Origin: an uncultured Candidatus Poseidoniales archaeon
GTDB taxonomy: Archaea > Thermoplasmatota > Poseidoniia > Poseidoniales > Poseidoniaceae
Length of the DNA stretch: 64,000 nucleotides
Direction: 5' to 3'
Assembly (NCBI GenBank): GCA_964526385.1
Contig: CAZGJD010000009.1
Coordinates: 8,358-72,357 of the forward strand
The notes beneath the pieces were generated by a model that worked only from the letters and a program-made list of their open reading frames with translations, did not search any database and was not told the origin of the DNA. Below, one piece after another: positions 8,726-24,676 of this stretch. Within the stretch, counting starts at the first letter, position 1. Every line of letters starts with the position of its first letter. Made by a program: the position numbers and the translations under genes.

Positions 8726-8761
8726 ACTGCCGCTAAAGTGTTCGATAAATCAATACTTGTG

Positions 8762-9181
8762 TTATCCCTGATATTCAGTAACACGGATTCCAAGGCGACC
8801 TTTTCTTGCTGGCCTTTGCATTATTTTCTCTATTTTTGATTCAAATGCTGATTTAAGGTCAATTTCCATTGCTAGAGAATGGCCCATCAACAGGATTAGA
8901 ACATCCGCCATTTCTTCAGCACATTCTTCTATTGGTTTACCCTTGGTTACAGCAGCAGCCAACTCACCTAATTCTTCGACTGTAAGTGCTATCCTGTAGC
9001 CCATATCGTGCCCGTTATTACCTGCGAAATCATGCTTGTGATGAAAATTAGCTACTTTTTTCATCATCAAACTCCAAGTATCTTCTTCGCTTGAAGCAAT
9101 CCAGTCATCTACACTCATTCCCATGATGTTTATTGGTAGGAACCGATGATTAATCATTGCGCGATGATGAATTTTATACAT
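8762..9181 (-). CDS. MazG-like all-alpha nucleoside triphosphate pyrophosphohydrolase
   Basis: EELGELAAAV...IEECAEEMADVLILLMGHS is the paired EExxE/ExxD helices of the MazG/HisE superfamily. The real start is probably an internal Met (9124 or 9118), because the track ORF overlaps mtnP. Confidence 0.55.
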   Translation of the reverse strand: MYKIHHRAMINHRFLPINIMGMSVDDWIASSEEDTWSLMMKKVANFHHKHDFAGNNGHDMGYRIALTVEELGELAAAVTKGKPIEECAEEMADVLILLMGHSLAMEIDLKSAFESKIEKIMQRPARKGRLGIRVTEYQG

Positions 9182-9903
9182 TCTACAACTGGTCCAAGTT
9201 TTGATTTTGCATTTGATGATACTTCATCGTGACTCAAATCCTTGTATGAATCTCCTGGCTCCCTTCCTGCCGCCCAGTTACTGGAAACCAATATCGCAGA
9301 ATATGGAATCTTCAATTCAGATGCCAATTTACATTCACGAGGCATAGTCATACCAACTACTTCTCCTCCTAATTTTTCAATTGCATCTATTTCTTTTGCT
9401 GTTTCAAATTGGGGGCCTTGAGCCAACCAATAAGTTCGGCCTAATCTCAAATTTGGTTGCAAAGAAGATAGTGTTCTATCCAAAGACGAATTCATATCTG
9501 AATCGAATGGACTGGTCATTGAAGTGAACTTTGCCTCGTCTTCAGAAAATGTCACTGCGACTCCTGTAAAATCAAGATATTGTGTAGCATAACCTACCGA
9601 ACCAGGTGGGAAGTCCTCAGGTATTGCGCCTACTGAGCAAACTGACAATATCTTGTCCACACCTGCTTGGGATAGTGCTTCCAAATTCGCTAGATGGTTT
9701 ATGTTGTGTGGAGGAGTTAGCCCCTTTCCGTGATGTCTATCAAGAAAGAATATTGTTGATTCTTTTGTTTTTACAACCTGTAATGGCACATCGCCAAATC
9801 TCGTTTCTGCAGTTATGCTTTCAGAACTCATAACGTCTATTGAACCTGTGGCCAAATCAGTCATCGCCGTTCCGCCGATGATTCCGATTCTCATCAGATT
9901 CAA
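9154..9903 (-). CDS. mtnP: 5'-methylthioadenosine / purine nucleoside phosphorylase family
   Basis: MRIGIIGGT..., FLDRHHGKGLTPPHNINHLANLEALSQAGVDKILSVCSVGA, and EVVGMTMPRECKLASE, as in MTAP-type phosphorylases. Confidence 0.7.
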   Translation of the reverse strand: MNLMRIGIIGGTAMTDLATGSIDVMSSESITAETRFGDVPLQVVKTKESTIFFLDRHHGKGLTPPHNINHLANLEALSQAGVDKILSVCSVGAIPEDFPPGSVGYATQYLDFTGVAVTFSEDEAKFTSMTSPFDSDMNSSLDRTLSSLQPNLRLGRTYWLAQGPQFETAKEIDAIEKLGGEVVGMTMPRECKLASELKIPYSAILVSSNWAAGREPGDSYKDLSHDEVSSNAKSKLGPVVECIKFIIAQ

Positions 9904-9904
9904 C

Positions 9905-10900
9905 TCATTCGAGTAATCTTGCTACAATGTCCGCCTTGGTTCCCGATGTTGCTACACCAGCTTCCTTCGCTTTTTCGACTAATTCGTCTTTCTTGAGTTT
10001 CATCAAATCTGCTTCGGACTCACCAGTTTCATTTGTTGTTTCTGAGACTTCTTCAACTTGCTCTGTCGCAACCTCCACAACTTCTTCCTCAGTCTTGTCA
10101 TCAGCAGATTCTTCTTTTTCAGAAATAGATTCCATTGCCTCTGCAGCAGCTAGCAAGTTGCTCTGATCTTCTTCTTCCATTGCATTTTCAAGAGCCGCAG
10201 CTTTTCTTGCTTTGAGTTCTGCTTCTTGCTTTTCTTCTTCTGCATGAATTTCATCCAATGTAGGCCCTTTATCAGTTACAACACCGGATTGTAATAGTTG
10301 GCTCTTTCGAATGACAACATTCTTACAAGGATAGATTGGCTTGATAGCGTTTCTAATTTCTGTTTCAAGATCACCATTTAACATGGATTCTTGGACTTTT
10401 GAGTAATTTGATTTTGATGAAAAACCTCGAATAATTTCGGCAGTTTTTGATCTAATTGCTTGCTTAACAGATGTTTGACATCTTCTTTCAGTAATAATCA
10501 ATGGTTTCATCCTGATTAGATAACCGTCTGTTGAAACTACATCTACCACGTCATCGATTTTACCCCTGTATCGGCGGATTTGTCTTCTTGTGTGGTCTGA
10601 TTGGTGAGAATGGCCAACAAATGTTGTTAGTGCATCTTGACCAACAGTTTCAGTAACTTTGAATCTTAAAATTACGTGCATCTTAGTGAAATCACCGCTA
10701 AATTCTTGTTGGGTCATTTCGTAAACTCTACCGATAATTTGTTCGTCGGTTTCTCCGAGAGTCTCTCCGATTCTCTTGAAATTCCAAGGATGTCTTGGTG
10801 CACGGATGGTAAACCATCTTTTATTCTTCCACTTATCTCTCTGCTTTCGTGCTGCTGCACGTGCCTTTGCACTCATCTTCTTGGCTGCCATTAGAATCAC
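9905..10900 (-). CDS. rps3ae: Ribosomal protein S3Ae (eS1) with a long acidic C-terminal extension ending in a SAP-like motif
   Basis: The core KWKNKRWFTIRAPRHPWNFKRIGETLG...HVILRFKV is typical of S3Ae. The protein is 331 aa, and by my recollection the family is usually about 200 aa. Confidence 0.85.
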   Translation of the reverse strand: MILMAAKKMSAKARAAARKQRDKWKNKRWFTIRAPRHPWNFKRIGETLGETDEQIIGRVYEMTQQEFSGDFTKMHVILRFKVTETVGQDALTTFVGHSHQSDHTRRQIRRYRGKIDDVVDVVSTDGYLIRMKPLIITERRCQTSVKQAIRSKTAEIIRGFSSKSNYSKVQESMLNGDLETEIRNAIKPIYPCKNVVIRKSQLLQSGVVTDKGPTLDEIHAEEEKQEAELKARKAAALENAMEEEDQSNLLAAAEAMESISEKEESADDKTEEEVVEVATEQVEEVSETTNETGESEADLMKLKKDELVEKAKEAGVATSGTKADIVARLLE

Positions 10901-10980
10901 TCTCAGATTGCGGGGGCTACCCCACTTGCAACCTTCCGACTAACATGGCCTATATGAAGGGAATTGATTGGGAATTGTGC

Positions 10981-11970
10981 TTACCATCCACGCTGGTCAA
11001 GCCTGATTTCCAATTTTTCCAATTCGTCCCCTCGCATTGGAGCACCTGCCATCATAGACATAGCTTCTGCAACCTTTTCAGGGTCATCGAAGTGAGCAGT
11101 TGCTAAAACAATTGCATCTGCCATAGTTTTGGGGTCTTCAGATTTGAAAATTCCAGAGCCGACGAAAATTCCGTCAACTCCCATTTGCATCATTAATGAA
11201 GCATCGGCTGGTGTAGCGATTCCTCCAGCACAGAATGTTACGACAGGAAGCCTACCCATATCGACTACTTCGTCCAAGATTTCTCTAACTTTACCATGCA
11301 TCTCATCGTCGATTTTGCCGAATGGAGTGAGTAGTGACTCTCCTGGTAATTCGCTTGAATTTGCTAAAACGCGATATCTGTCTATTATCAAATCAGCTGC
11401 TTTATTGAGCCCATCATCATCTAAACTTTGCATTTGTCTGATTTCTTGGTCAATCAGTCTCGCATGAGTGACTGCCGCAACTACATTCCCAGTTCCTGCT
11501 TCACCTTTTGTTCGAATCATTGCGGCTCCTTCGTAAATTCTACGAACTGCCTCTCCTAAACCAGTGGCACCACACACGAAGGGTATGTCATGTGAGTTTT
11601 TGTCAATATGGAAATAGGGGTCTGCGGGTGTCAAAACCTCAGATTCATCGACCATGTCAACCCCCAGCGCTTGTAGGACTTGAGATTCAGCCTCGTGTCC
11701 GATTCTTGATTTAGCCATAACTGGGATGGATGTACATTCGATTATTCCCTTGATCATGTCTGGATGTGATGTTCTCGCAACTCCTCCAGCTTTTCTGATG
11801 TCTGCTGGCACTCTCTCAAGCGCCATTACAGAAACAGCACCCGATTCTTCAGCTACGAATGCTTGGTCAGGTGTTACAACATCCATGATTACACCACCTC
11901 TAAGCATAGAGGCAAACCCTCTTTTCAATAAGTCATCAGCGTGCCTTAGAGGTTTAATTTGATTTGACAT
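10981..11970 (-). CDS. pdxS: Pyridoxal 5'-phosphate synthase, PdxS subunit
   Basis: [46 protein letters not shown]...IPFVCGA...[13 protein letters not shown]...[16 protein letters not shown]. Confidence 0.95.
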
Positions 11971-12375: not shown

Positions 12376-12819
12376 CTATTGAGGTAGGACATCTTCTAAT
12401 GCGTTTGTAATAATCGACTCAGCTACTTCAAATGCGGTATTTCCAGGATATACCTCCAATTTTAAGCGCCCTTTTACAGTCGAATTTTGCTTTGGTTTCG
12501 CAAGTTTTATTTCGCCTGAAAGAAGTGAAATAAGATCCAATCGCAAGTGAAGGCAATTATCATCATCGATTCTAGATTCTAGCTCGTTCATTAAGGCGAA
12601 AAGAACATCTTTCCCTAAACGGGAAATAGATCTAGTAGCCTGATTTTTGTTACTCAATGTTGCATTTATTAGGTGAATATTCCCCCCTGAATAGGAGGTT
12701 GATTTTTCCAATTTTACAGATTCCGAATCTCCAGTAAGCCATGATAGTGCGTCAACGTAAATTTTTTCATCTTCAAGGCCGCTACACGTTGAAATCCATG
12801 AAGCATAATGTAATCCCAT
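12376..12819 (-). CDS. Hypothetical protein (possibly DUF54/COG1931-like RNA-binding fold)
   Basis: 147 aa with no diagnostic motif. Size and an alternating beta/alpha pattern recall the small archaeal exosome-neighbourhood protein family, but this is a recollection only. Confidence 0.4.
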   Translation of the reverse strand: MGLHYASWISTCSGLEDEKIYVDALSWLTGDSESVKLEKSTSYSGGNIHLINATLSNKNQATRSISRLGKDVLFALMNELESRIDDDNCLHLRLDLISLLSGEIKLAKPKQNSTVKGRLKLEVYPGNTAFEVAESIITNALEDVLPQ

Positions 12820-12839
12820 TGAAAATCAAACCATCCTGT

Positions 12840-13085
12840 TTAATCCAAGGGATGGTCGATCCCTTCCTGGCCTAATGTCCACTGCAAGGTCTTTATCACA
12901 CCATCGAGTGCTTTGTGATTTCTTGCAGCTTCTTTCATACCATCACGGTCTCCATCATCGCGACACTGGTCAAACCATTGTTTCCACTTATTTCTTCTAG
13001 CAACGGCTTTGTCAAGCATCGTTTCAATCTCTTCCCAAGTTCGATTGTAGGACCTAACAGGCTGGAAATCATCACTGCTGTTCAT
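12840..13085 (-). CDS. Hypothetical small protein
   Basis: Start moved to ATG 13085 (MNSSDDFQP...) to remove the overlap with the upstream gene. No recognised domain. Confidence 0.4.
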   Translation of the reverse strand: MNSSDDFQPVRSYNRTWEEIETMLDKAVARRNKWKQWFDQCRDDGDRDGMKEAARNHKALDGVIKTLQWTLGQEGIDHPLD

Positions 13086-13131: not shown

Positions 13132-14166
13132 TCAAGAAATTCTCTCTTCTTGATGGTCAACATCAATTTCCAAATTGTCACCGATGACGCATCTGAATAT
13201 TTTTGATTTCACGACTGAATTTTCTCCAATTATTGATGATTCAGATGTTCCGTCTATTCTTGAATTTGACATAACTACCGAATCCACAGCGGCACCTGTT
13301 ACCGAAGCACCTGGAAGTATAATCGACCTCTCAATGTGGCCACTCACACTTGCAGAAGAACTGATGAAAGAACCATCTGGGAGAATTTCACCTTCAGGCA
13401 TTGGAAAAGGAAGGTTTTCAGAATTTTTGACAAGTGAAAGTTGTGCGTTCAATAATTCAAATGGATGTCCCACATCAAACCAAATGCCCTCTACCTTTTT
13501 CCCGTAAATTTTCCAACCACGATTTAATATTTCTGGAAATAATTCTTTTGAGAAATCAAATTTTGTATCTTTTGGTATTAGTTCCATAACTTCAGGCTCA
13601 ATGATGTATAATCCAGCATTTATTAGATTAGAAAATGCCTCTTCTGGTTTGGGTTTCTCTAAAAATTTGGAGATATATCCCTCAAATAAACCAGAATCTA
13701 GTTCCCCATCGTGTGTTGAACTTAAGCCTACTATTCCAAACTCAGACGGATTTTCAACCTCCCACAAAGCCATAGTAACCTTTGCGTTTGATTCCCTGTG
13801 TGATTGTATCAGGTCCGCAACATCAAATGAAGCAACTGAATCACCAGAACCTACAACGAAAGTTTCAGTTAATTCATCAGATAACAATCTGACACTTCCT
13901 GCAGTACCCATCGGGGTCAGTTCTTGATTCACTCTTCCATTTATTTTCCAGCTATGAACGTGATTTATGAGTTGGTCTCCCTTGTAGCCAGTGGTTACGA
14001 TAATCTCTGATATTCCCGAGCTGACCATTGAGTCTTTGACGTAGTCAATTACTGGCCTACCGAGAACTGATACCATTGGTTTTGGACGGTTTAGAGTCAA
14101 TGGCATCAGACGAGTACCTCGTCCGCCAGCCATTATTACTCCTTTCAGATTCTCACTTCCTTCCAC
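13132..14166 (-). CDS. Sugar-1-phosphate nucleotidyltransferase with a C-terminal left-handed beta-helix
   Basis: GVIMAGGRGTRLMPLTLNRPKPMVSVLGRPVIDY is the NTP-transferase signature. The C-terminal hexapeptide-like repeats match the GlmU/GMPP/RmlA-like family. Confidence 0.8.
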   Translation of the reverse strand: MEGSENLKGVIMAGGRGTRLMPLTLNRPKPMVSVLGRPVIDYVKDSMVSSGISEIIVTTGYKGDQLINHVHSWKINGRVNQELTPMGTAGSVRLLSDELTETFVVGSGDSVASFDVADLIQSHRESNAKVTMALWEVENPSEFGIVGLSSTHDGELDSGLFEGYISKFLEKPKPEEAFSNLINAGLYIIEPEVMELIPKDTKFDFSKELFPEILNRGWKIYGKKVEGIWFDVGHPFELLNAQLSLVKNSENLPFPMPEGEILPDGSFISSSASVSGHIERSIILPGASVTGAAVDSVVMSNSRIDGTSESSIIGENSVVKSKIFRCVIGDNLEIDVDHQEERIS

Positions 14167-15163
14167 GAGATGCAGTCATGTCGACTCTTCTCATGGATTT
14201 CTTCTTATCTGACCTGCCTTTCTTTGAACCTAAACCTTGTCTATCTCCAGACATGGTCCCTCCAAAAGAAAGTGAGCCTTGATTTAACAGCTGGTCGACC
14301 ATAGAGTCTGCAACTTTTGGGTCCTCAGCGCCGGTTTTCATCATTTTAGTCACCGATTCATTGTGGTCGACAATCCATGATTCTCTTTCTTCGCGAGCTA
14401 TTTTTAACTTATCACGAACCTCATTAACTTCGTTCATCAACTCAACGATCTTGGAGTGTACTTCATTCGCCTTTTCCTTACACGCAACAAATTCGTTGTG
14501 GAACCTGTCACCTTCACCTTTGAGGAAATTTCTGTGTTCAAAGAGTTCATCGAGTTCTTTCGACATTTCTTTCGCCCTTTCCAGACAGTCCACAAACTGC
14601 TTGTGAGCATCATCAGCCTCTGATTTTAGAGTTGCAATTGCTTCGTCTCGATTTGAAATATCAACTTTGATGATTTGAAGTTCTGCAACTAGTGGTTCCA
14701 ATTCTGCCATCTTTCGTCGCATGATTTTGATTTTATCCATTGTCTCTTTTTCTTTCTTTGGAGACATTCCGCCTTTTGTTTCAAAGATGCGTTCGAGAGA
14801 TGTAACTTCACTCGTTAACTTATTGAATTCAATTGACGCGGAATTTTTATCGTTTTGTTCTCCTCTTTTTGATTTGGAGACTCCGATTAGGTCTCGGATT
14901 TGGGCTTGAATCGCATCTCTTCTTTCCTTGTGCACCTTTTGTTCGGCTCTGACTGCCCTAACTTCTGCTACTGCAAGGTCGACTTTTTCTCTGTGTTCCT
15001 TGTATTGAGATTGGATTGCATTTCTTTGGTCTGCAAATCGATTTGCTTGGTCGTTGTGGTTATTTCTTGCTTCACGAAGTTTCTTGACCTTGGCCTCCAT
15101 CTGATGGAGATGATCTCGCAACTCAGTGTTGTCCTGAGGCTGCTGTTCTTCTGATTCGCTCAT
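14153..15163 (-). CDS. Archaeal coiled-coil protein, paralog A (COG1340-like, from memory) with a basic Gly/Ser/Lys/Arg tail
   Basis: 336 aa of almost uninterrupted heptad-like charged sequence (LREARNNHNDQANRFADQRNAIQSQYKEHREK...). It ends GSKKGRSDKKKSMRRVDMTASRGRK. Confidence 0.7.
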   Translation of the reverse strand: MSESEEQQPQDNTELRDHLHQMEAKVKKLREARNNHNDQANRFADQRNAIQSQYKEHREKVDLAVAEVRAVRAEQKVHKERRDAIQAQIRDLIGVSKSKRGEQNDKNSASIEFNKLTSEVTSLERIFETKGGMSPKKEKETMDKIKIMRRKMAELEPLVAELQIIKVDISNRDEAIATLKSEADDAHKQFVDCLERAKEMSKELDELFEHRNFLKGEGDRFHNEFVACKEKANEVHSKIVELMNEVNEVRDKLKIAREERESWIVDHNESVTKMMKTGAEDPKVADSMVDQLLNQGSLSFGGTMSGDRQGLGSKKGRSDKKKSMRRVDMTASRGRK

Positions 15164-15338
15164 GATTGGGCGTCTACTTATTGGCCTTGAATGCTACTAT
15201 TAGGGAATCGGCAACCGCAACGCAGAACGCATTCGCTGTTTCATCCTCGGCTTCCAAGTGGCCGAACGCCTTGCTGCGTGGAACAACACCCGCTACGGAG
15301 GTGGTCTTTGATGACGACGAAGCGCCCTTCGCGATTAT

Positions 15339-16817
15339 TCACACATTAATTATGCTCAATAACTGGAAAATAACGGCCGCTGTAAGCCCTATTGCTCCCG
15401 AAACATAGGAAGTTATAGAACTCGTATTCCTAAACCACTTTACAAACTCTGGTCTAACGTTTACATTGATTTGCCTTCCAACTAGTAAGTCCCCTTCTAT
15501 GTTTTCCAAACGAATTGCGACACTTGCATCACCTGAGCCCTCTGGCAGTAAAGTTTGCCAAGACAAGGTACCCTCTTGCAATAGTGTAGACATCCGGCCT
15601 AATCTGTCATCATCCCCTTTGTCGAAATCCGGTGTAGCCTCTTCTGGCCAATATGAATTTTCACCAGCTTTTAGATTATATCTAAGGAGTAATTCCTGTG
15701 GTCTAAAATCAGGTGAATTCACTCTTAACACGACTTGCCTATCTTTATCTGACAAGTTATGTATGTAGCAGAATAGATTGGCATTTTCTGTCACAACATT
15801 TTCCAAATCAACATCGAATAACAACTCTGGCATGTCTGGTTGTTTACCGATAGCCATATCTTGTTCAATTCTATCAATTAGTCTGTAAAATGCAGGTAAC
15901 TGCCTTTCTGACCTGACAAATATAGAATCCCATAATTCCTCGGAGAATATGTTGTGTTCCATAATCTCGTGGATACCTTTGTCAGTAAGAATCTCTTTTA
16001 TTTCGGTATTTGTAGTGACCCTGTCTACTCGCCCTTTGAATCTTCTGTGCATGAGCATTAGGAACTTTTCCACCCCAAAATCAGCAGACACACCTTTCTT
16101 AATATTCGATTCGAAATCTCTCAAGAAATCATCAAATTTGCTCCGTAGTAGTGGATCCATATGATTGCTCAAAATTTCACTAAATGGCAGACTAAGAGTT
16201 GAGGGGTGAATTGGTGGCTCGTATGCAGATAAAAGACCATCATTAGTCACCATGTTAAATTTGTAATTTCTTGTCGACAGGTGTTGGCCAAGAGACATTG
16301 CCAACATGGATGCACACGCAAGCAAACTTCTCTGGCCTAATTCAGAATCGGAACCAAAGTAAACAGAAAATGCCAAGACAGATATAGAAAATAACGACAT
16401 AAATAACGCCGTATTATGACTTGCCATCGTCTTTGAAATCAGGCCATCGACCGAGGAATAGCCGTGCATACTATTTATCGGTCGATGATCCTCAGCTGCA
16501 GCATTAACTTCAGCTCTGAAAACTAATCGTGTTAGTTGCATGCGATAGCGATGGATTGCTAAACCTGCAGAGTAACCTACTAATATCGTCAATGCGATTA
16601 GAATGAAGGCTGTAGAAAGCGTAAATCCAAGTGAAGGCTCAATATTCTCTAACCACCATGATGGACTTTGACTGCTAAATGCCCAAGAACCGAATATGAA
16701 CAATAATGCGAAGGCTGGTAAAAATAATACTAATCTCAGTCCTTCAGTGAGAAATTGCTTATCTATACCGTGAAATTTTTCTTCCTTATTTCTCAATTCT
16801 TTTAACACTTCAGTCAA
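15339..16817 (-). CDS. Hypothetical multi-pass membrane protein
   Basis: 492 aa. Several N-terminal hydrophobic helices, a soluble middle region and one C-terminal helix. It overlaps the upstream DtxR-family gene by 8 nt, so the two are probably co-transcribed. Confidence 0.6.
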   Translation of the reverse strand: MTEVLKELRNKEEKFHGIDKQFLTEGLRLVLFLPAFALLFIFGSWAFSSQSPSWWLENIEPSLGFTLSTAFILIALTILVGYSAGLAIHRYRMQLTRLVFRAEVNAAAEDHRPINSMHGYSSVDGLISKTMASHNTALFMSLFSISVLAFSVYFGSDSELGQRSLLACASMLAMSLGQHLSTRNYKFNMVTNDGLLSAYEPPIHPSTLSLPFSEILSNHMDPLLRSKFDDFLRDFESNIKKGVSADFGVEKFLMLMHRRFKGRVDRVTTNTEIKEILTDKGIHEIMEHNIFSEELWDSIFVRSERQLPAFYRLIDRIEQDMAIGKQPDMPELLFDVDLENVVTENANLFCYIHNLSDKDRQVVLRVNSPDFRPQELLLRYNLKAGENSYWPEEATPDFDKGDDDRLGRMSTLLQEGTLSWQTLLPEGSGDASVAIRLENIEGDLLVGRQINVNVRPEFVKWFRNTSSITSYVSGAIGLTAAVIFQLLSIINV

Positions 16818-17472
16818 ATTCCCACCTCAACAAAATCCTCTGAGACAAATAGTCAGATATATTCCCTTGCCCGTCGAGAGATAAATCACCGTTTTCAACT
16901 CTTTTGACCTTAGAATCCATTTTCAACCCTATTTTATCGAATAAAGATGCGTCATCTTCAGTTGCAAGAAACATTGAAACAAATCCCGATTCACCGACTT
17001 TCAGGTCTGAAGCAAGAATAAATTGCCCAAAATTTCCAATCTTGTTAGCGACATTCTCAGAAGGTCCTGGTATTTGCCTTCCAGATGGATCTGTTTCGGG
17101 ATTACCTAAAAGCATCGAGATTGATGCTTCCAAATCATCATTGAATGCATGTTCTAATCTGCAGGCCGTCTCATGAATGTCTCCATTGAACGGTAATCTG
17201 CTCAAAAGAACTTCAGCCAATCTGTGTCTCCTCTTCATTACTTTGCCGTGCTCTAAACCCTTCGATGTTAGCAAAACTCCTTTGTATGGCACATAGTCTA
17301 CAAATCCATTTTTTGCTAGCCTTTGGACCATTTCCGTAGCAGAAGCAGGAGTTACCGATAAGTAATCAGCGAGTTCTCCATTTCTAACCATCTGCCCTGG
17401 TTTTCTTTCGTTTATTTCATAGAGTGCTTCCAGATATTCATCCTCGAATTCTTGAAAATGCCCTGCTCCCAT
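16810..17472 (-). CDS. DtxR/IdeR/MntR-family metal-dependent transcriptional regulator with a C-terminal FeoA/SH3-like domain
   Basis: ELADYLSVTPASATEMVQRLAKNGFVDYVPYKGVLLTSKGLEHGKVMKRRHRLAEVLL, then a CRLEH metal-site region. Confidence 0.85.
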   Translation of the reverse strand: MGAGHFQEFEDEYLEALYEINERKPGQMVRNGELADYLSVTPASATEMVQRLAKNGFVDYVPYKGVLLTSKGLEHGKVMKRRHRLAEVLLSRLPFNGDIHETACRLEHAFNDDLEASISMLLGNPETDPSGRQIPGPSENVANKIGNFGQFILASDLKVGESGFVSMFLATEDDASLFDKIGLKMDSKVKRVENGDLSLDGQGNISDYLSQRILLRWEFD

Positions 17473-17487
17473 GTAAAATCACCAAAA

Positions 17488-19908
17488 TTAATCTGCACGG
17501 GCCTCAAATATTGTTTCACAAGCTGGACAACGTGCTTTTGCAGGCCTTTTCTCATATGGAACCTTTAGTTTCCGTGTACATTTTGGACAACCAAGGATGT
17601 CATTATCAGAGGAAGCCCATGGTTCTGATTCTTCTACTTCGGAAACTGTAGCATCCTCTTCTGTATCTTTTTCTATTTCTTCTAGTTTGGACTCTACATC
17701 AAATTTTGACTCACATTCGGGGCATCTCACAGACCCATTATAATCGCTAGGAACTCTTAATCTTCGGTCACAGGTGGGGCATGAAACCTCGATTTTTTCG
17801 GGTGATTTTGCTTTTGTTTCAGAAGTTTTTTGTTTAGATTTAATTGTTGATTTAGGTGAATTTTTTATTCTAATCGCAAAAATGGCGACCATACCGGCGG
17901 CTAATCCACCAAGTATTCCACCTATCGGTAATTCAAATCCAGATGATTCATCAGATGTCAATTCAGATTTTACCAAAATTTGGTCAGAAATTACTTGACC
18001 GTCTACATACCAAGAAAGAGTCACTACAACATTTTCTTGTTTAGGCCAATCGACAACCATTGAATAATCTTCAGAAGCAACTTGTTTGCCATTAACTGTT
18101 TTCATCCCTATTACAGAATTAGTGGAATCTGTTGCTATGATTTCGCTTTGTATAATTCCACCATCTCCATTATTACTCAAAGTAAAAAGAATCGTAACCT
18201 GTTCACCTGCTACGGGAACTCTAGGTTGAGTAATAGGATTAACAACGATAGAAGGGTTGGGGGAATAGTTTGGATATTCTATTTGATATTCTAAAGTGCT
18301 ACCTAATCCAATGGTCCAATCAACTGCTATAACTTTCACATATACCTGATCAGCGTTAATCTCCCCTAAATTCATCTCGCCATAGGTTACACCCGGAAGC
18401 AATACCCTTTCCTCAGAAATTAAGGTATTTCTATCTCCATCCAATATTTTACCATATTCAATAATAACGTCCCTTCCAATACCAGTTTCTAAATCGATTG
18501 CCCATTCGATATTTACACCATCTTCAGACCTCTTGATTTCACCTAAATTAATTGAAATATCTTGCGCTGATACGATAGGAATTATTACAGTTCCTGAAAG
18601 ATTTTCATCTACTACAGAGTCTACGCTTACTATTGACCAATTGAAAATATGGTCACCTTCATCTTCGATACTGAAAATGAAAGGAACTTCACCCGCACTC
18701 CCAGGTTGAAGCAAAATTGATTCGGACTCATGTAACTCGTCGCCGTTATCAAATCTAAGTGCTACACTCCCTTCAGCATCTCCTTCATTTCTAACTAAAA
18801 TCGAAACAACGATGTCATCATCCACATGCCAAGGACCGTTTATCAAGGATGGAGAATTATATCCTGCTCCGGTTATTATCGCTGATTCAAAGATTAAATT
18901 ATCACTCGAGATTGAGTCCCCAAGTGCTCTCGTGAGTTCGGGCTTACACTCAAGAACACCTGGTTTTGATAGCATGCTTATTGTATAATTAACAGAATCA
19001 TTAGAATTAATTTGCTCACCAAAACTACTCAAAAGTGAATTGTCGAAGTAGCAAGATATGTTCCCAGTGAAATTAGTATGGCCGATGTTCATGACATTGA
19101 GATTCCATGACATCTGACTTCCAGAACTTGGTTCAATATTTCTGGTTAAGTTCATTTGCAAAAACGGCAGGGGAGGGGGTGAAATTGTGATGATCGCAAA
19201 TCTCGTGTTGTCGGTTGTGTAATCATCAACATCTCCATGCAATTCAAAATCAAAAGCTAAATCCCCCTCTTGTACAGGTCCATATTGAAATTTAACTAGA
19301 TTGGTTTCGTCTCCTAAAACATTGATTGAAAATGTATTTTCATGCACACCCTCTACTGACATATTGATATCTCCAGACCATTCAATATCACCAGAGTTTA
19401 TCACTGGAATTTCGATTTCAACATAATCTCCGTCGTTTATTGTAAGATTTTCAGTCAAATTTCCATCTTCAAAAATTCCGTTAAAAATTGGCTCCCCAAT
19501 CGAAATGTTGAGTGGCCTCAAACGAGTAATTGATTCTTCAAAAACTGTCCATTGATTCGCATTTGGAGTTCCAACATCACCAGAAAGGCTAACAGTCAGA
19601 TTTGAGATTCCAAGGGGTGCTAAACCAAGTGTAGATTCGATGTAGTAATTTACCCCATCATCAACTAGCAAATTACCTGAATCTGAATCAATGAGATTTC
19701 CTTCCAAATCTGAAAGAGTTGCATTCCAAAACACTTGTGAGGATGATGCACCGCCTACACCAGTCAGTGTTATGTTCAATTCAATCGGACCTTCGCCAAC
19801 TAGCTCATCCCCAACAATCAAGACCTCAGAGATTACTCCTCCTGATGATTGAACCACTGGAACCAAAGCTAGTGTTAACAAACACATCAATGCGATGGCT
19901 CTCCGCAT
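17488..19908 (-). CDS. Large surface protein: signal peptide, Ig/CARDB-like repeats, one TM helix, cytoplasmic tail with two zinc ribbons
   Basis: The N-terminus MRRAIALMCLLTLALVPVVQS is signal-like. TM helix is LPIGGILGGLAAGMVAIFAI. The tail contains CPTCDRRLRVPSDYNGSVRCPEC and CPKCTRKLKVPYEKRPAKARCPAC. Confidence 0.7.
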   Translation of the reverse strand: MRRAIALMCLLTLALVPVVQSSGGVISEVLIVGDELVGEGPIELNITLTGVGGASSSQVFWNATLSDLEGNLIDSDSGNLLVDDGVNYYIESTLGLAPLGISNLTVSLSGDVGTPNANQWTVFEESITRLRPLNISIGEPIFNGIFEDGNLTENLTINDGDYVEIEIPVINSGDIEWSGDINMSVEGVHENTFSINVLGDETNLVKFQYGPVQEGDLAFDFELHGDVDDYTTDNTRFAIITISPPPLPFLQMNLTRNIEPSSGSQMSWNLNVMNIGHTNFTGNISCYFDNSLLSSFGEQINSNDSVNYTISMLSKPGVLECKPELTRALGDSISSDNLIFESAIITGAGYNSPSLINGPWHVDDDIVVSILVRNEGDAEGSVALRFDNGDELHESESILLQPGSAGEVPFIFSIEDEGDHIFNWSIVSVDSVVDENLSGTVIIPIVSAQDISINLGEIKRSEDGVNIEWAIDLETGIGRDVIIEYGKILDGDRNTLISEERVLLPGVTYGEMNLGEINADQVYVKVIAVDWTIGLGSTLEYQIEYPNYSPNPSIVVNPITQPRVPVAGEQVTILFTLSNNGDGGIIQSEIIATDSTNSVIGMKTVNGKQVASEDYSMVVDWPKQENVVVTLSWYVDGQVISDQILVKSELTSDESSGFELPIGGILGGLAAGMVAIFAIRIKNSPKSTIKSKQKTSETKAKSPEKIEVSCPTCDRRLRVPSDYNGSVRCPECESKFDVESKLEEIEKDTEEDATVSEVEESEPWASSDNDILGCPKCTRKLKVPYEKRPAKARCPACETIFEARAD

Positions 19909-20005
19909 GTTTCATGTCAAACCAAGGGGGTTCTTCACATTCACCCACCCTTAAGGGTGGGTCGGTGACTTTATTCAAGGGTGGCAGTTCGGCGCACTGA
20001 TAGCA

Positions 20006-20827
20006 ATGGATGTAGATGACCTCTTGTCAGTGTCGCCTAAACTATTGGCTCAAGCAATTCTACACCAAAGAGAACGCTTGATGGAACAGATTCCAAAGGA
20101 ATTGGAGGCAAGCACATCTGATCTCCAAAAATCCGAACCGTTGGCAAAGGCAGCCAGAATTGAAAGGGACAAAATTAATTCCAAAGTCAGTAAGTTGAAA
20201 TCTGAACGAGACACCTCCCAACAAAAGGCCAAAGTTTTATTTGAGAATTCTAATAAGATATACAACGAATTGTTAGATTCAGGTGGAATAAAAAATCCTA
20301 ACCCAAAATGGGCTAGAGACAAATTGGAAGCGAATCTAAAGGCTATCGAAGATAAGTTGCAGACAAGTGCTGGAAATCATAAGACAGAAGAGAAATACAT
20401 CAATGAAATGAAGAATCTTGTAAAAGAACACGAAGAGTGGGTCGAAGCAAATGCATCTTCTCAGCCAAAATTACTCGAAATGAGAGACGCAAGAAAAGAA
20501 GCCAAAAAATTACTCGACATTGCGCAAAAAGCACATGAAGCCATGGTTGAATTAGCTGGTGAAAATGATGAGAAGCATGAACAATTCATGACGTGGGAAA
20601 AAGTTCGTAGGGACAGCCTCTCCAAAACGAGGAAACTAAATGACATCATGAAGTTCTCAGAAAAATCATTGTCATATTGGAATCAAAAAATTGAAGATGA
20701 TAAATTTGAACCCTTACTACAAAATAGCGTAAATGTGAAATTAGGAAAGATGTCTTCCTTTGCAATTTCAAGGGCCAAAAAATTGGCTGAAGAAAAATCG
20801 TCTGTACGTGGTGGTGAGGAAGAATGA
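20006..20827 (+). CDS. Archaeal coiled-coil protein, paralog B (COG1340-like)
   Basis: 273 aa of charged heptad-rich sequence (ARIERDKINSKVSKLKSERDTSQQKAKVL...). Its stop overlaps the start of the next gene by 4 nt. Confidence 0.7.
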   Translation: MDVDDLLSVSPKLLAQAILHQRERLMEQIPKELEASTSDLQKSEPLAKAARIERDKINSKVSKLKSERDTSQQKAKVLFENSNKIYNELLDSGGIKNPNPKWARDKLEANLKAIEDKLQTSAGNHKTEEKYINEMKNLVKEHEEWVEANASSQPKLLEMRDARKEAKKLLDIAQKAHEAMVELAGENDEKHEQFMTWEKVRRDSLSKTRKLNDIMKFSEKSLSYWNQKIEDDKFEPLLQNSVNVKLGKMSSFAISRAKKLAEEKSSVRGGEEE

Positions 20828-22893
20828 GCGATTTCTGTGAAATCACTGGTATGTCTATAAACGATGCGAATAAGTTTGAGTTTATTCACTCAAAAATGAT
20901 CGAAGAGTTTAGTCCCAAAGAAATTGATGAGAAATATCTCGAAAAACTTGAAAATGAAATCTCAACTTCAATAAAGCGAATTCTTCCACATAAAAGTGAT
21001 TCAAAACAGAGAGAGAGTTTAACAAATCACCTATCGAGAACGTTAGGTAAAAAATTCAAATCTTCAGATGTCAAATCATTCGGTTCTTCCGTGACTGGCC
21101 TTAATATCAAAGGCGGAGACCTAGACCTTTGTTTTGTAATACCTGGTGCAAACCAGAAAAGTACAATTCAAAACATGGCTAAGGTCTTGAGGGGGCAAGG
21201 AATGGAAAACGTTCAACCTATTACTAATGCCATAGTCCCTATACTAAAATTCAAAGACCCAAGAAGTGGCATACATACTGATATTTCCGTTAACAATACT
21301 TTAGCACTGCACAATACGGAATTAATCAAAAGATATTCTAAAATTGACCGGAAGGTAAGCGATTTCATTCGATTGGTAAAATATTGGTCATTCCACAGAA
21401 ATATTTCTAATTCGTTTGAAGGCACTTTTTCATCATATGCTTGGACGATTCTCGCATTGAATTATCTTATTTCAGAGGGAGTAGTCCCTAATTTACAAGA
21501 TACCGAAGAAAAAATGTTGATTGAAATAAATGGAAATGAATTTGATATATCGATGGATAATCCTGAAACTATCAAACTATCAAGAGATATACCATTGTCA
21601 AAAATGATTTGTGGTTTCTTCGAGTTCTACTCGAACTGGGATTGGTCTAGTGATGTGGTTTCTATCAGAAACGGAGGGAAATTGGGTAGGGAAGAAGTCT
21701 CGTGGGATAATGAAGATCCGACTTCAATAGACTTGCTTAACCTTGGGAAATCTGATGCAAAAACTGGCAAGCACCACTTACCAATTCAAGACCCATTTGA
21801 CATTAATCACGACCTTTCAAAAGTATTAACTGCACAAGGCGAATTACAAATTCTAAATGAAATTCTCAGAGCAAGAGTGGAAATTGGAAACGGATTGAAT
21901 TGGTCAAAACTATGCGAAACTGTAGAACCTGAAAGGCTAGCAGACTTAGAACCTGAAGATTTGTTCCATGACCTGAGAAATTTGCCAATCAAGGATGTTG
22001 AAAATAAGAGAACTAAAATTCAAGGAGAAATTAATGCTCTTGAAACTAAAATCAAAGCATTTGAAGAGGAGAAATCTGTTTCTATTAGATTAGCAAACGC
22101 AATGAAGGGAATAATCGAGGAGACATCAGATATCCGTTCAGAACACAAGAGCATACACATAGGTCTTAAAGAAAGAAGTAAAGAAATTAGGGACCTAAAA
22201 AAGGAGAGAGACTTAATTAATTCAAACATTGTCATCCCACTGAAATACATTGAAGAGCAGTTAGCCAAAGTATACAAGCGATTAACAAATGAATTGAATG
22301 TAAGATATATTCCTAGTTTGGACAAAGAAATTAGTGATTTCTCATGGTTTTTTGAGTTACAAGAAATGCACAAAAAGGCGAAAGATGCTGAAAACTTACA
22401 CAACAAATATGTCGAATTATCAAAGCAACAGCATGAAGATATAAAGAAGCTAGAATTGTTCGAAACAAAGCATGATGAAGTTACAACAAAACTGCTCGCA
22501 GAAGAACCATTATTGAAAGATTTGAAGTTGGGTAGAAACGGTGCTAAGAGTTATGACAAGAGAGTATATAACATCAATAGAGCAATCCAAAATGGTCGCT
22601 CAGAATTTCAAAAACTAAGAAGAGAAATTGGTAGGTTGGACGCCTGGTTGAGAATTTCTAAGGGAGGAGGAAAATCAAACAAAGGTAGAAGTAGAAAAGA
22701 TTCGAATAGAGGGGAAAAGGTAACTTCAGGCCCCGTCACGCTTGGAGACCTATCCGACTTACTTGCTCAGGCTGGTCAATCTTCATCAACAAAGAAAACC
22801 AAGAAAATAAGTTCAAAGAAAGCCGGTATGAAAAAATTGGGTAACTTTTCGGCTCACAGAGGCACAAGAGGATCGTATAACAGGAAAGAATGA
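20824..22893 (+). CDS. Cid1/TUTase/non-canonical poly(A) polymerase-like nucleotidyltransferase (Pol-beta NTase + PAP-associated domain) fused to a C-terminal coiled-coil module and basic tail
   Basis: FGSSVTGLNIKGGDLDLCF (hG[GS]...DxD), PILKFKDPRSGIHTDISVNN (third Asp), LIKRYSKIDRKVSDFIRLVKYWSFHRNI, GTFSSYAWTILALNYL...VPNLQ, GFFEFYSNWDWSSDVVSIRNG, and IQDPFDINHDLSKV. Residues ~385-640 are coiled coil like paralogs A-C. The Lys/Arg/Gly/Ser-rich tail covers residues ~640-689. Confidence 0.8.
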   Translation: MSDFCEITGMSINDANKFEFIHSKMIEEFSPKEIDEKYLEKLENEISTSIKRILPHKSDSKQRESLTNHLSRTLGKKFKSSDVKSFGSSVTGLNIKGGDLDLCFVIPGANQKSTIQNMAKVLRGQGMENVQPITNAIVPILKFKDPRSGIHTDISVNNTLALHNTELIKRYSKIDRKVSDFIRLVKYWSFHRNISNSFEGTFSSYAWTILALNYLISEGVVPNLQDTEEKMLIEINGNEFDISMDNPETIKLSRDIPLSKMICGFFEFYSNWDWSSDVVSIRNGGKLGREEVSWDNEDPTSIDLLNLGKSDAKTGKHHLPIQDPFDINHDLSKVLTAQGELQILNEILRARVEIGNGLNWSKLCETVEPERLADLEPEDLFHDLRNLPIKDVENKRTKIQGEINALETKIKAFEEEKSVSIRLANAMKGIIEETSDIRSEHKSIHIGLKERSKEIRDLKKERDLINSNIVIPLKYIEEQLAKVYKRLTNELNVRYIPSLDKEISDFSWFFELQEMHKKAKDAENLHNKYVELSKQQHEDIKKLELFETKHDEVTTKLLAEEPLLKDLKLGRNGAKSYDKRVYNINRAIQNGRSEFQKLRREIGRLDAWLRISKGGGKSNKGRSRKDSNRGEKVTSGPVTLGDLSDLLAQAGQSSSTKKTKKISSKKAGMKKLGNFSAHRGTRGSYNRKE

Positions 22894-22896
22894 GTC

Positions 22897-23370
22897 ATGC
22901 TTTCGAACGCAAAAAAAGCTTATTGGCGAAACGGTATTTCCCCAAGAAAAATGGACTATCCTTCCATCGAGAGAATAAGACAATTATTCTTTGACCAAAC
23001 TGGCGAAGAATATGCACGAATTTCAATCCAGACTCTTCCAATTCCAAACTGGGGTGGAAATTTGATACTATATGATGAAAATGATTTCATCAGGGGATTG
23101 CTATGGGCTAATAGGCTCCCACCAAATAAAGTAAGAATAGTAGCTTTTGTGATTGATGAAGATTATGTTTCAAATGGCTATGGAAGTCAAGCATGGAATT
23201 TACTCTTAAATTCCGCAAGGAAAGAGGGAATAAATGAAATTCAACTCGAGGTTAAAGCTTCCAATACCAAAGCAATCAAGTTCTATGAAAACAGGGGATT
23301 GAAAATAATACAAAAATTGGAAGGATACTACAAATCTGGACTTGGTTATGCAATGAGAGGGGAGATTTAA
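22897..23370 (+). CDS. GNAT-family N-acetyltransferase
   Basis: VDEDYVSNGYGSQAWNLLL...QLEVKASNTKAIKFYENRGLKI covers acetyl-CoA binding motifs A/B. It starts 3 nt after the preceding stop. Confidence 0.75.
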   Translation: MLSNAKKAYWRNGISPRKMDYPSIERIRQLFFDQTGEEYARISIQTLPIPNWGGNLILYDENDFIRGLLWANRLPPNKVRIVAFVIDEDYVSNGYGSQAWNLLLNSARKEGINEIQLEVKASNTKAIKFYENRGLKIIQKLEGYYKSGLGYAMRGEI

Positions 23371-23407
23371 GGAAATAATCATGACCTAACTATCTCTGGT
23401 ATCGTCC

Positions 23408-23713
23408 ATGCTGAAGGATGTCATCAACGATTTAGTGGATGGCGAATGCATAACATCTGCAGCTTTGCTTGATGATTCTGGTTTCACAATTGAAAGAACA
23501 TCGATAGAACTCAAACCAAACGAATTGGTTGGTTTTTTGGAAATTGTTGAATCATATGAAATTTCAACTATAGTTACAACAGAATGCTTCGTTTCATGTA
23601 AGAGATTTCAATCAGGTCAAACATTAATTTCAATAACACCTAAGAACGGTAACATCGGAAAGGCTAGATTGCGAATCGAACAATGTTGTTCTTTGATTGA
23701 AAATTATCTTTGA
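23408..23713 (+). CDS. Small Roadblock/LC7-like protein (tentative)
   Basis: 101 aa. LKDVINDLVDGECITSAALLDDSGFTIERTS resembles the Roadblock/MglB N-terminal pattern (l..l...gv.ga.l.d.dG). Weak. Confidence 0.4.
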   Translation: MLKDVINDLVDGECITSAALLDDSGFTIERTSIELKPNELVGFLEIVESYEISTIVTTECFVSCKRFQSGQTLISITPKNGNIGKARLRIEQCCSLIENYL

Positions 23714-23800
23714 TATCGCATTAGCGAGGCTTAAATGGCAAAGGTCGGTGGTTGCAACGCTGGGAGTGCGGGAGCACTAAGCGAACAGGTGCGATGAATA

Positions 23801-24676
23801 ATGTCAGGGCTAAAAGAAACTCTTGATGAGAAGCGAAAGTTGGTAGATAAAAAGGCAACTCAATACCGAACGACTCGTGACGAATGGAATAGTCGAACAA
23901 AAGAGTTTACAGTCCAGAGAAATGAATTGAACGCAGAAGTTAGAGAACTTATTCAAAATGTAAAACAACAAAGAGAAATCAGAGAACAAATGAATGAACT
24001 TGTTCGCGAAAAGAAAACTGCAAGAAAGGAAGCAAGTAACCTAGTAAAGCAGGCAAAATCAGAATTGGACTCTCAAAAGGGCACCAAGGATGATTCCGGT
24101 CAAGGAAGAAGAAAGGGAGAAAGAAGAGTAACGGTTCACTCCTTGAGAAGAGAATTTGAAAAACTCGATCGAGAGATGGAGATGGGGAAACATCTTGGCC
24201 AAAACGAAAAGAAGGTAATGAAAAGAATGAAGGAAATTCGTGCTAAAATAAAAGACATGGAATCATCTGAAGAAAATAATTCCGACCTAAAGTCTGCAAG
24301 AGGCACTCTACGCGAAGCAATGGTCGCTCAAGAAGAAGCACACGTCGAGGTGCAAAAAGCCGCACAAGCTGCACAAGAAGCCCATGATTTAATGCTACAG
24401 TGGAATAAGGAAGTTGACCGACAGAGAGAACTTGCCGAAGGTGCTCACAGAGAGTTGAGAAAATCTAAGAAAGAAGCTGATAAAGCTCATAGATTTTACA
24501 TAGTGTCACTGCGATGCTTACACTCAATTCAAGACATCATAAGGTCAATGCGAGGTACAGAGTCTGGCGAATCTCAAAGAGGAGCGAGGGTAGAAGTACA
24601 AGACTTGATGAGTAAATTGATGAGCGGGGATACACTATCAACTGAGGAGTTAATGGAATTACAGCGCTTTGATTAA
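23801..24676 (+). CDS. Archaeal coiled-coil protein, paralog C (COG1340-like)
   Basis: 291 aa: RDEWNSRTKEFTVQRNELNAEVRELIQNVKQQREIREQMNELVREKK..., with the same two-block coiled-coil layout as A and B. Confidence 0.7.
   Translation: MSGLKETLDEKRKLVDKKATQYRTTRDEWNSRTKEFTVQRNELNAEVRELIQNVKQQREIREQMNELVREKKTARKEASNLVKQAKSELDSQKGTKDDSGQGRRKGERRVTVHSLRREFEKLDREMEMGKHLGQNEKKVMKRMKEIRAKIKDMESSEENNSDLKSARGTLREAMVAQEEAHVEVQKAAQAAQEAHDLMLQWNKEVDRQRELAEGAHRELRKSKKEADKAHRFYIVSLRCLHSIQDIIRSMRGTESGESQRGARVEVQDLMSKLMSGDTLSTEELMELQRFD

Follow-up and report, generated by a model that had tools for sequence, protein, structure and literature searches.

We analyzed a stretch of 64,000 nt (the window) from a member of Candidatus Poseidoniales (Marine Group II, phylum Thermoplasmatota) and find in it a gene, here called NT (20824-22893, forward strand, 689 aa), whose residues 1-365 (20824-21918) form a non-canonical terminal nucleotidyltransferase of the Cid1/URT1/TUT4/7 class, that is, the class of the terminal nucleotidyl(uridylyl)transferases (TUTases). 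The enzyme is fused to a helical module (residues 376-613, 21949-22662, with its helices taken from an AlphaFold2 (AF2) model) and to a C-terminal tail that is basic and, but for two short helices, disordered (22663-22893, from AF2 and hhalign), and its start codon overlaps the stop codon of ccB (20006-20827, forward strand, 273 aa), a fast-evolving paralogue of the coiled-coil family DUF7121/COG1340. Two more coiled-coil genes lie close by: ccA (14153-15163, reverse strand, 336 aa), a diverged DUF7121/COG1340 paralogue with a basic C-terminal tail, and ccD (23801-24676, forward strand, 291 aa), a canonical member of the family. We give a probability of roughly 55% to the reading in which the ccB-NT locus specifies a coiled-coil-scaffolded complex that tails RNA 3' ends. 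The elements that would be new, so far as our literature search shows, are a TUTase that occurs throughout an archaeal order and carries a helical arm and a ccA-type tail, the coupling of its gene to a dedicated DUF7121 paralogue, and the existence of pseudoenzyme variants; the DUF7121/COG1340 family (function unknown) and the eukaryotic Cid1-type TUTases were already known.

Poseidoniales are abundant archaea of the surface ocean, of which we know no cultured representative, and non-templated RNA uridylation by Cid1/TUT-type enzymes is, to our knowledge, regarded as a eukaryotic trait. Our literature search found neither a described Cid1/TUT-type enzyme in archaea nor any description of the Poseidoniales NT protein; a TUTase review mentions archaea solely for CCA-adding enzymes.

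Family alignments were made from nine Poseidoniales loci and database homologues, Pfam scans of the NT family covered 67 orthologues and 10 more distant members, and hidden Markov model (HMM) searches at the level of open reading frames (ORFs) were run over 1032 ORFs of the window and related loci; wherever a related locus carried an organism name, it was that of a Poseidoniales, 'Euryarchaeota' or 'Methanobacteriota' metagenome-assembled genome (MAG). NT scored 111.3 bits against MTPAP-like_central (PF22600, cutoff 27) and 47.2 bits against PAP_assoc (PF03828, cutoff 22.6), and both domains were found in 67 of 67 orthologues. Its best match was Arabidopsis URT1 (E = 3.5e-38), followed by TUT7, TUT4, CutA and Cid1 (E-values ranging to about 1e-30). 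The AF2 model (predicted local distance difference test, pLDDT, 80.6) gave the same picture in Foldseek, with URT1 (7xs4) first at E = 2.4e-20, a target TM-score of 0.90 and a root-mean-square deviation of 2.4 Å, and TUT7, Cid1 and CutA next. The catalytic motifs hG[GS], [DE]h[DE]h and h[DE]h are intact in NT: G87, S88, D101, D153, K186 and S203-S204-Y205 are invariant in the 67 orthologues, and D99 is kept in 66 of them. The database name of the protein is 'nucleotidyltransferase domain-containing protein', and an earlier sequence-only reading of this DNA had likewise called it an NTase, which holds as far as it goes but left the Cid1/TUT4/7 type unrecognized. We consider the TUTase identity of NT a more interesting fact than the coiled-coil paralogy on which that reading had dwelt.

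In Cid1 and the human TUTases a DxxExxH cluster gives UTP selectivity (PMC5689010), and the corresponding nucleotide-recognition motif of NT is D323-P-F-D326-I-N-H329 (DxxDxxH). Position 329 is His in 51 of the 67 orthologues, Arg in 13 (as in CutA, which adds C) and Leu or Val in three. From these nucleotide-selectivity residues we predict that NT prefers UTP and has uridylyltransferase activity; the added nucleotide would probably be U in most lineages, those with DxxDxxH, and perhaps C or U where Arg replaces His.

We searched 1.84 billion representative proteins exhaustively with HMMER and recovered the full-length NT fusion in about 17 clusters (50% identity), of which all that were named belonged to Poseidoniaceae, Poseidonia, Euryarchaeota or Thermoplasmatota; within this search the fusion is restricted to Poseidoniales. 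Past these clusters, all of which scored 350 bits or more, the score fell to about 308 bits. Eighteen of the lower-scoring clusters were looked up, and the 11 with an organism name came without exception from eukaryotes: a mollusc, an annelid and a tick (TUT4/7-like proteins), and amoebozoans, fungi and algae (TUTases). A fusion confined to Poseidoniales whose next named relatives are eukaryotic fits acquisition of the catalytic module from a eukaryote by a Poseidoniales ancestor. A viral origin was rejected, no relative of NT being found among IMG/VR viral contigs. The fuller scenario, in which this ancestor captured a TUT4/7/URT1-type enzyme and wired it into the COG1340 system through the arm, the ccA-type tail and ccB, is one we regard as unlikely in its entirety; if right, it would provide a clean example of a gene that passed from a eukaryote to an archaeon and then underwent domain fusion.

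In three NT homologues (P0250, P0256 and P0257) the GS, DxD, third-Asp, SSY and nucleotide-recognition residues are all gone, though the ORFs, of 666-693 aa, are intact and include the helical arm and tail, with C-terminal halves better conserved than the N-terminal halves. P0256 and P0257 share just 43-47% identity, so the dead form has long been maintained. The locus of P0257 (L010, NT at 8001-10016) retains ccA, ccB, the ATGA overlap, GNAT, an RB-like gene, ccD and PurP (the neighbors of NT described below). Judged by their residues, these proteins are conserved pseudo-nucleotidyltransferases; since such lineages keep the arm, the tail and the ATGA overlap with ccB, the non-catalytic parts must have a function of their own.

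NT is tied to the coiled-coil family at its start codon. The ATGA in which ccB stops and NT starts lies with a Shine-Dalgarno-like GGTGGTGAGGAAGA at 20810-20827 (forward strand), and this arrangement is kept in 10 loci: the overlap occurs in 10 of 10 distinct loci, despite NT identities of 29-88%, and a Shine-Dalgarno-like GGAGGTGA/GGTGGTGA stands upstream of it in all 10. Such conservation indicates that ccB and NT are translationally coupled via the ATGA overlap. Downstream follows the gene for a GNAT acetyltransferase, which begins within a few nucleotides of the end of NT both here and in the five other loci whose GNAT start is readable.

That ccA, ccB and ccD are DUF7121/COG1340 proteins, a known family of unknown function (PMC1322226), follows from profile comparisons. 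Against Pfam DUF7121 (PF23435, gathering threshold 29 bits) ccD scored 56.1 bits, with residues 17-289 aligned to profile positions 39-303 of 307. Among the 120 ccD homologues listed, of 601, all 120 carried PF23435, and all taxon-bearing names were Poseidoniales or Thermoplasmatota. The JGI name of ccD orthologues is 'coiled-coil DUF342 family', which we take to be the COG1340 name. In the window, ccA (14.1 bits) and ccB (15.3 bits) themselves fell under the Pfam cutoff; DUF7121 was the commonest Pfam match of the orthologues of both (8 of 8 for ccA, best E = 1.8e-7; 7 of 10 for ccB, best E = 1.8e-5), and in L010 the ccA orthologue reached 25.9 bits and the ccB orthologue has a precomputed PF23435 match. 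Direct hhalign comparison aligned ccA with ccD in register (probability 92.8, P = 3.9e-7), ccB with ccD in register over 172 columns (probability 88, P = 3e-6), and ccA with ccB at P = 4.4e-4. Controls with reversed alignments, which keep composition and heptad character, gave P = 0.08-0.6, and shuffling the target in 7-column blocks gave a null of about 19 +/- 4 vs. 48-52 for the real alignments, a level that none of the 48 shuffles attained. Over the 1032 ORFs, each coiled-coil family HMM retrieved the other two families only, bar two short ORFs (E = 0.14 and 0.95), and the ccD HMM retrieved all ccB orthologues (E = 2e-8 to 1e-2).

Pairwise BLASTP of the four coiled-coil segments proposed by the sequence-only reading (ccA, ccB, ccD and the C-terminal half of NT) was not significant for any pair after composition correction (E = 0.018 or worse), which places the paralogy signal at the profile level only; uncorrected E-values, down to 1e-7, reflect coiled-coil composition and were discarded as evidence either way. 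A sequence search of the PDB with ccD gave no match at E <= 1. The three proteins share less than 25% identity with one another, against 57-88% for ccA across Poseidoniales and 60-89% for ccD, the most conserved of the three, across the order; they are accordingly old. On this profile evidence ccA, ccB and ccD are genuine but anciently diverged paralogues. The recall of COG1340 in the sequence-only reading was right, with ccD a bona fide DUF7121 member and ccA and ccB diverged paralogues, and three of its four paralogous modules stand on profile evidence; the local paralog amplification it proposed is overstated, the paralogues being ancient and not the product of a recent event.

The peptides with the R-[DN]-x-x-N pattern which that reading quoted are present in the ORFs, and the equivalence drawn between them holds in register for ccA and ccD, which share an R-[DN]-x-x-N...F-x-x-Q-R-N helix in the profile alignment, but not for ccB, whose 'ERDKIN' aligns about 35 residues further along ccD. 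Common to all three is a central short helix, a loop and an 'EK' element (...T-x-G-x-x-x-x-x-EK...), which reads LERIFETKGGMSPKKEKETM in ccA, LDREMEMGKHLGQNEKKVM in ccD and IEDKLQTSAGNHKTEEKYI in ccB. About 35 residues of helix 1 are missing from ccB. Its N-terminus (residues 1-44, 20006-20137; MDxxDLLxVSPKLLAQAILHxRERL) is nearly invariant across the order, while the remainder of the protein evolves fast; lying outside the region aligned to DUF7121, this N-terminus is a candidate interaction peptide.

The fourth segment is the point on which the strongest alternative turns, namely, that the C-terminal half of NT is itself a true DUF7121/COG1340 module, produced by fusion of a ccA-like gene to the NTase, so that the locus holds four paralogues of one fold. 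This half is conserved in all Poseidoniales orthologues, and its AF2 helices (389-468, 473-488, 499-560 and 571-613, pLDDT mostly 68-89) repeat the order of elements of the coiled-coil proteins: a helix of about 80 aa, a short helix, a Pro/Ser loop, and long helices. Realigned over full length by hhalign, it runs collinear with ccA for 260 columns (probability 55.9, P = 1.1e-4), past the landmarks EHK, RDxI, an S-x-x-EK loop, EAxxH-x-F, RE..W and LLxxG, and the 'coiled-coil DUF342' name that JGI gives to ccD orthologues is also given to two NT-family proteins of the most divergent, dead clade. Yet the Viterbi score of the alignment to ccA derives from 38 tail columns only. With the tail removed, the NT body compared with ccA, ccB and ccD gave P = 0.011-0.13, no better than the shuffle null, in which 4-26 of 48 shuffles scored as high, and the C-terminal half of the dead clade was not significant against any of the three either. 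DUF7121 was not among the recurrent Pfam matches of the 67 NT orthologues, nor among those of the 10 distant members, and over the 1032 ORFs the searches failed in both directions, the HMM of the NT C-terminal half not significantly retrieving ccA, ccB or ccD, and theirs not retrieving NT. By these profile tests the helical body of NT is not detectably DUF7121, and the four-paralogue view, so far as it concerns this segment, seems to us tentative and somewhat short of even odds.

What NT does share with ccA is the tail. The two of the four segments that had been noted as ending in basic tails are indeed ccA and NT. The ccA tail motif (residues about 288-335, 14159-14302, reverse strand) has the form D-x-LL-x-x-G ... 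KK-x-x-M-R-R ... A-S-R-G (MVDxLLNxG...KKKxMRRVDMTASRG), and that of NT (residues about 640-681, about 22741-22866, forward strand) the form LGDLSxLLxxGG...KKxxM[RK]K...AHRG; the two short helices of the NT tail in the AF2 model lie at 640-649 and 664-671. By hhalign the tails match with probability 87 and P = 4.1e-6, at a score of 32 vs. a column-shuffle null of 9.4 +/- 2 (z of about 11), and 0 of 48 column or block shuffles reached that score. Profile alignment thus makes the NT tail homologous to the ccA tail, and to that of ccA only. A wider 'D-L-x-x-LL-x-x-G' end motif in all four segments was considered and rejected: only NT/ccA is clearly significant, with ccA/ccB marginal (P = 0.007) and other pairs inside the null. 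Likewise rejected was the idea that one NT homologue of 860 aa (P0130) is a 'Rosetta stone' fusion of ccB and NT. Within it, about 170 residues of the NT C-region ('DESRLEHLEPDDLF' to 'HQRFIENIN') are duplicated exactly and in tandem, which is either an assembly artefact or a recent internal duplication.

An alternative of a different kind denies any functional link: the genes would be independent housekeeping genes, kept adjacent by a frozen Poseidoniales gene order. The sequence-only reading had proposed checking whether the neighborhood is conserved, and it is; the whole block of about 17 kb from a ferredoxin gene to a gene for a sodium:solute-type transporter is collinear across the order (L002-L009), so that a conserved neighborhood is non-discriminating and only the overlaps discriminate. 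That reading's apparent operon also shrinks, from all the coiled-coil genes and their neighbors to a ccB-NT-GNAT unit. Upstream of ccB, a TATA-like box CTTTATTC (19969-19976, forward strand) lies 30-37 nt before the ATG, with CTTTAT conserved in L002-L008 and a similar TTTATT in L009 and L010; we infer that this box is the promoter of ccB-NT-GNAT. Conserved TATA-like boxes precede each of the genes RB, ccD and PurP (that of RB overlaps the GNAT stop), making separate transcription of these genes probable, and the ccD leader is conserved, with a Shine-Dalgarno-like AGGTG. The likely transcription units, read from these boxes, are [ccB-NT-GNAT], [RB], [ccD] and [PurP...], the PurP gene beginning at 24714, after ccD.

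Two loci carry insertions in this row: L010 has a gene for a KaiC/RecA-like ATPase (10940-11623, reverse strand) between RB and ccD, and L009 has a small hydrophobic, probably membrane ORF (12743-13048, forward strand) between GNAT and RB.

The ccA gene stands apart, 5 kb from ccB-NT, on the opposite strand and in a different overlapping gene pair: its stop overlaps by 14 nt (14153-14166) the start of a sugar-1-phosphate (nucleoside diphosphate-sugar) nucleotidyltransferase gene, an overlap kept in other loci, whose product has NTP_transferase and left-handed beta-helix domains in an architecture like that of eIF2B-gamma/epsilon. Both ccA and ccB are thus immediately upstream of, and overlap, a nucleotidyltransferase gene, the two enzymes being of unrelated superfamilies. 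The sugar nucleotidyltransferase gene itself overlaps, at 13132-13181, a conserved 113-aa ORF.

The collinearity, the probable separate promoters of RB, ccD and PurP, the two insertions and the position of ccA with its sugar-nucleotidyltransferase partner are all as expected of unlinked neighbors. They do not account for the retention everywhere of the ATGA overlap and its Shine-Dalgarno-like element while ccB drops to 37% and NT to 29% identity across loci, for the fast evolution of ccB, NT and RB within a block whose flanking genes stay 57-95% identical, or for the specific tail common to NT and ccA; mere adjacency is in our judgment an improbable explanation. Weaker still, and very unlikely, is the view that NT is not an RNA uridylyltransferase at all but a poly(A)- or C-adding enzyme, a synthase of signaling nucleotides like OAS or cGAS, or a defense NTase: sequence gives no certain reading of specificity, and Arg329 in 13 of the 67 orthologues recalls CutA, but every top match by sequence or structure is to Cid1/URT1/TUT4/7/CutA and none to OAS, cGAS or CD-NTases, the PAP_assoc domain and DxxDxxH cluster are present, the context is one of conserved housekeeping genes and not a variable island, no relatives were seen on viral contigs, PADLOC gave no defense-family match for the neighbors of NT, and for NT itself it gave only weak 'oligonucleotide cyclase' matches (E = 2e-4 and 4e-3), on which grounds an anti-phage role (CBASS and similar) was rejected.

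We therefore return to the RNA 3'-tailing complex. In this proposal ccB and the helical arm of NT would pair into a hetero-oligomeric coiled-coil scaffold, and the shared basic tail would dock NT and ccA on a common partner, most likely RNA or a ribonucleoprotein (RNP) such as the ribosome, while the catalytic module would add non-templated nucleotides to RNA 3' ends. The probably co-transcribed GNAT, an enzyme like the N-terminal acetyltransferases (NATs), might speculatively hint at a link to the translation machinery. The ccB-NT complex, the RNA substrate, the U specificity and the common docking partner are each inferred from the features above. If the complex exists as proposed, its persistence in the dead lineages would make the scaffolding or docking role at least as important as catalysis.

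Several observations weigh against this proposal. The helical arm of NT has no detectable relation to ccB. Basic tails rich in K, R, G and S are compositionally simple, and the match between those of NT and ccA covers just 38 columns, yet the shuffles fail to reproduce it. The His of the nucleotide-selectivity cluster is not universal, and three lineages do without the catalytic residues, which suggests that tailing can be dispensed with. Finally, the collinearity of the 17 kb makes gene adjacency, overlaps apart, weak evidence of a functional link.

If the proposal is right, Poseidoniales would uridylate RNA 3' ends, and an RNA-tailing enzyme present throughout the order would give these ecologically important archaea a further layer of RNA metabolism. 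The COG1340/DUF7121 proteins, which occur archaea-wide and have gone without a function for more than 20 years, would be scaffolds that dock on RNA or RNPs. The fusion, the common tail and the translational coupling together provide a first lead, concrete and testable, to what this family does. The conserved dead variants form a natural experiment that separates the scaffold from the enzymatic role, and they would show that the scaffold function is independent of catalysis.

Other elements of the locus may be described more briefly. The divergent intergenic region between ccB and the gene for an 806-aa protein contains a perfect 18-bp palindrome, CCCACCCTTAAGGGTGGG (19944-19961), which lies 8 bp ahead of the TATA-like box and occurs nowhere else in the window. 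L002-L008 share it, L003 and L005 with one or two substitutions, and L009 and L010 lack it; we consider it a candidate operator. A gene for a DtxR/MntR-family regulator (16810-17472) is found 2.5 kb from it. The 806-aa protein (17488-19908, reverse strand) is conserved but evolves fast (27-84% identity across loci). It has an apparent signal peptide and a single transmembrane helix; a large part rich in Asn, Ser and Thr is presumably extracellular, and on the cytoplasmic side there are two CPxC...CPxC zinc-ribbon repeats. Its L010 orthologue has only a faint precomputed Pfam match to Zn_ribbon_4. In L002, a long-read MAG contig of 1.5 Mb (JAYQHX010000002.1), there are apparent frameshifts in ccA (3457-3507/3503-4465), NT (10001-11590/11568-12059) and the transporter gene (15061-17099), which are probably consensus errors and not pseudogenes.

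Between NT and ccD are GNAT, an Ard1/NAT-like acetyltransferase (22897-23370, forward strand, 157 aa), and RB, a small alpha/beta protein that is probably Roadblock/LC7-like (23408-23713, forward strand, 101 aa). The sequence-only reading had placed these and all its other ORFs correctly, along with the spacings between them (a 4-nt overlap and gaps of 3 and 37 nt). GNAT scored 50.7 bits against Acetyltransf_1, and its best PDB match was the N-terminal acetyltransferase subunit ARD1 (4pv6, E = 2.5e-10); at 50.5 bits it stayed below the cutoff of 86.4 for the RimI equivalog (TIGR01575), and with Ard1 closest we take it for a GNAT/NAT-like protein and not a RimI equivalog. The name 'Roadblock-like' given earlier to RB draws near-threshold support from orthologues, but the window protein has no direct Pfam or PDB sequence match, and a profile search of the PDB returned nothing meaningful. 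In L009 and L010 the positional orthologues, which group with the RB family at probability 97.9, scored 20-21 bits against Robl_LC7 (PF03259, cutoff 23; E = 5.7e-4 and 2.8e-4). The AF2 model of RB is of low confidence (pLDDT 56.6), with the order beta-beta-alpha-beta-beta-beta-alpha, and in Foldseek it matched LAMTOR, MglB and Roadblock proteins and equally profilins (E = 0.01-0.08). No small GTPase partner for RB was seen nearby.

Compared with known systems, RB fits the Roadblock/LC7 proteins (MglB, LAMTOR) in its predicted beta/alpha order and conserved G-F...N-L-G motifs, and an Asgard Roadblock protein is among the Foldseek matches, but all its scores are below the Pfam cutoff and profilins score equally. 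Archaeal Ard1 (Thermoplasma 4pv6, Sulfolobus SSO0209) is the type nearest to the GNAT downstream of NT; unlike for Ard1, the position of this GNAT directly after a TUTase gene matches no described arrangement. As DUF7121/COG1340 proteins, ccD is a full-length member, and ccA and ccB match in register at the profile level. The difference is that three diverged paralogues occur inside 10.5 kb; ccA has an additional basic tail past the Pfam domain, and ccB has a unique conserved N-terminus, a shortened helix 1 and translational coupling to an NTase.

A further comparison is with the eukaryotic terminal nucleotidyltransferases (Cid1, URT1, TUT4-TUT7 and CutA). With these NT shares the catalytic palm and the PAP/OAS1 substrate-binding domain, the hG[GS], DxD and third-Asp motifs, and the K and SSY phosphate contacts, at about 25-29% identity and TM-scores of 0.75-0.90 over the catalytic module. 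NT differs in being archaeal and in having neither the zinc knuckles nor the second pseudo-NTase module of TUT4/7. It has instead a helical arm of about 240 aa and a basic tail, its gene is coupled to a DUF7121 gene, and its family includes lineages that are catalytically dead.

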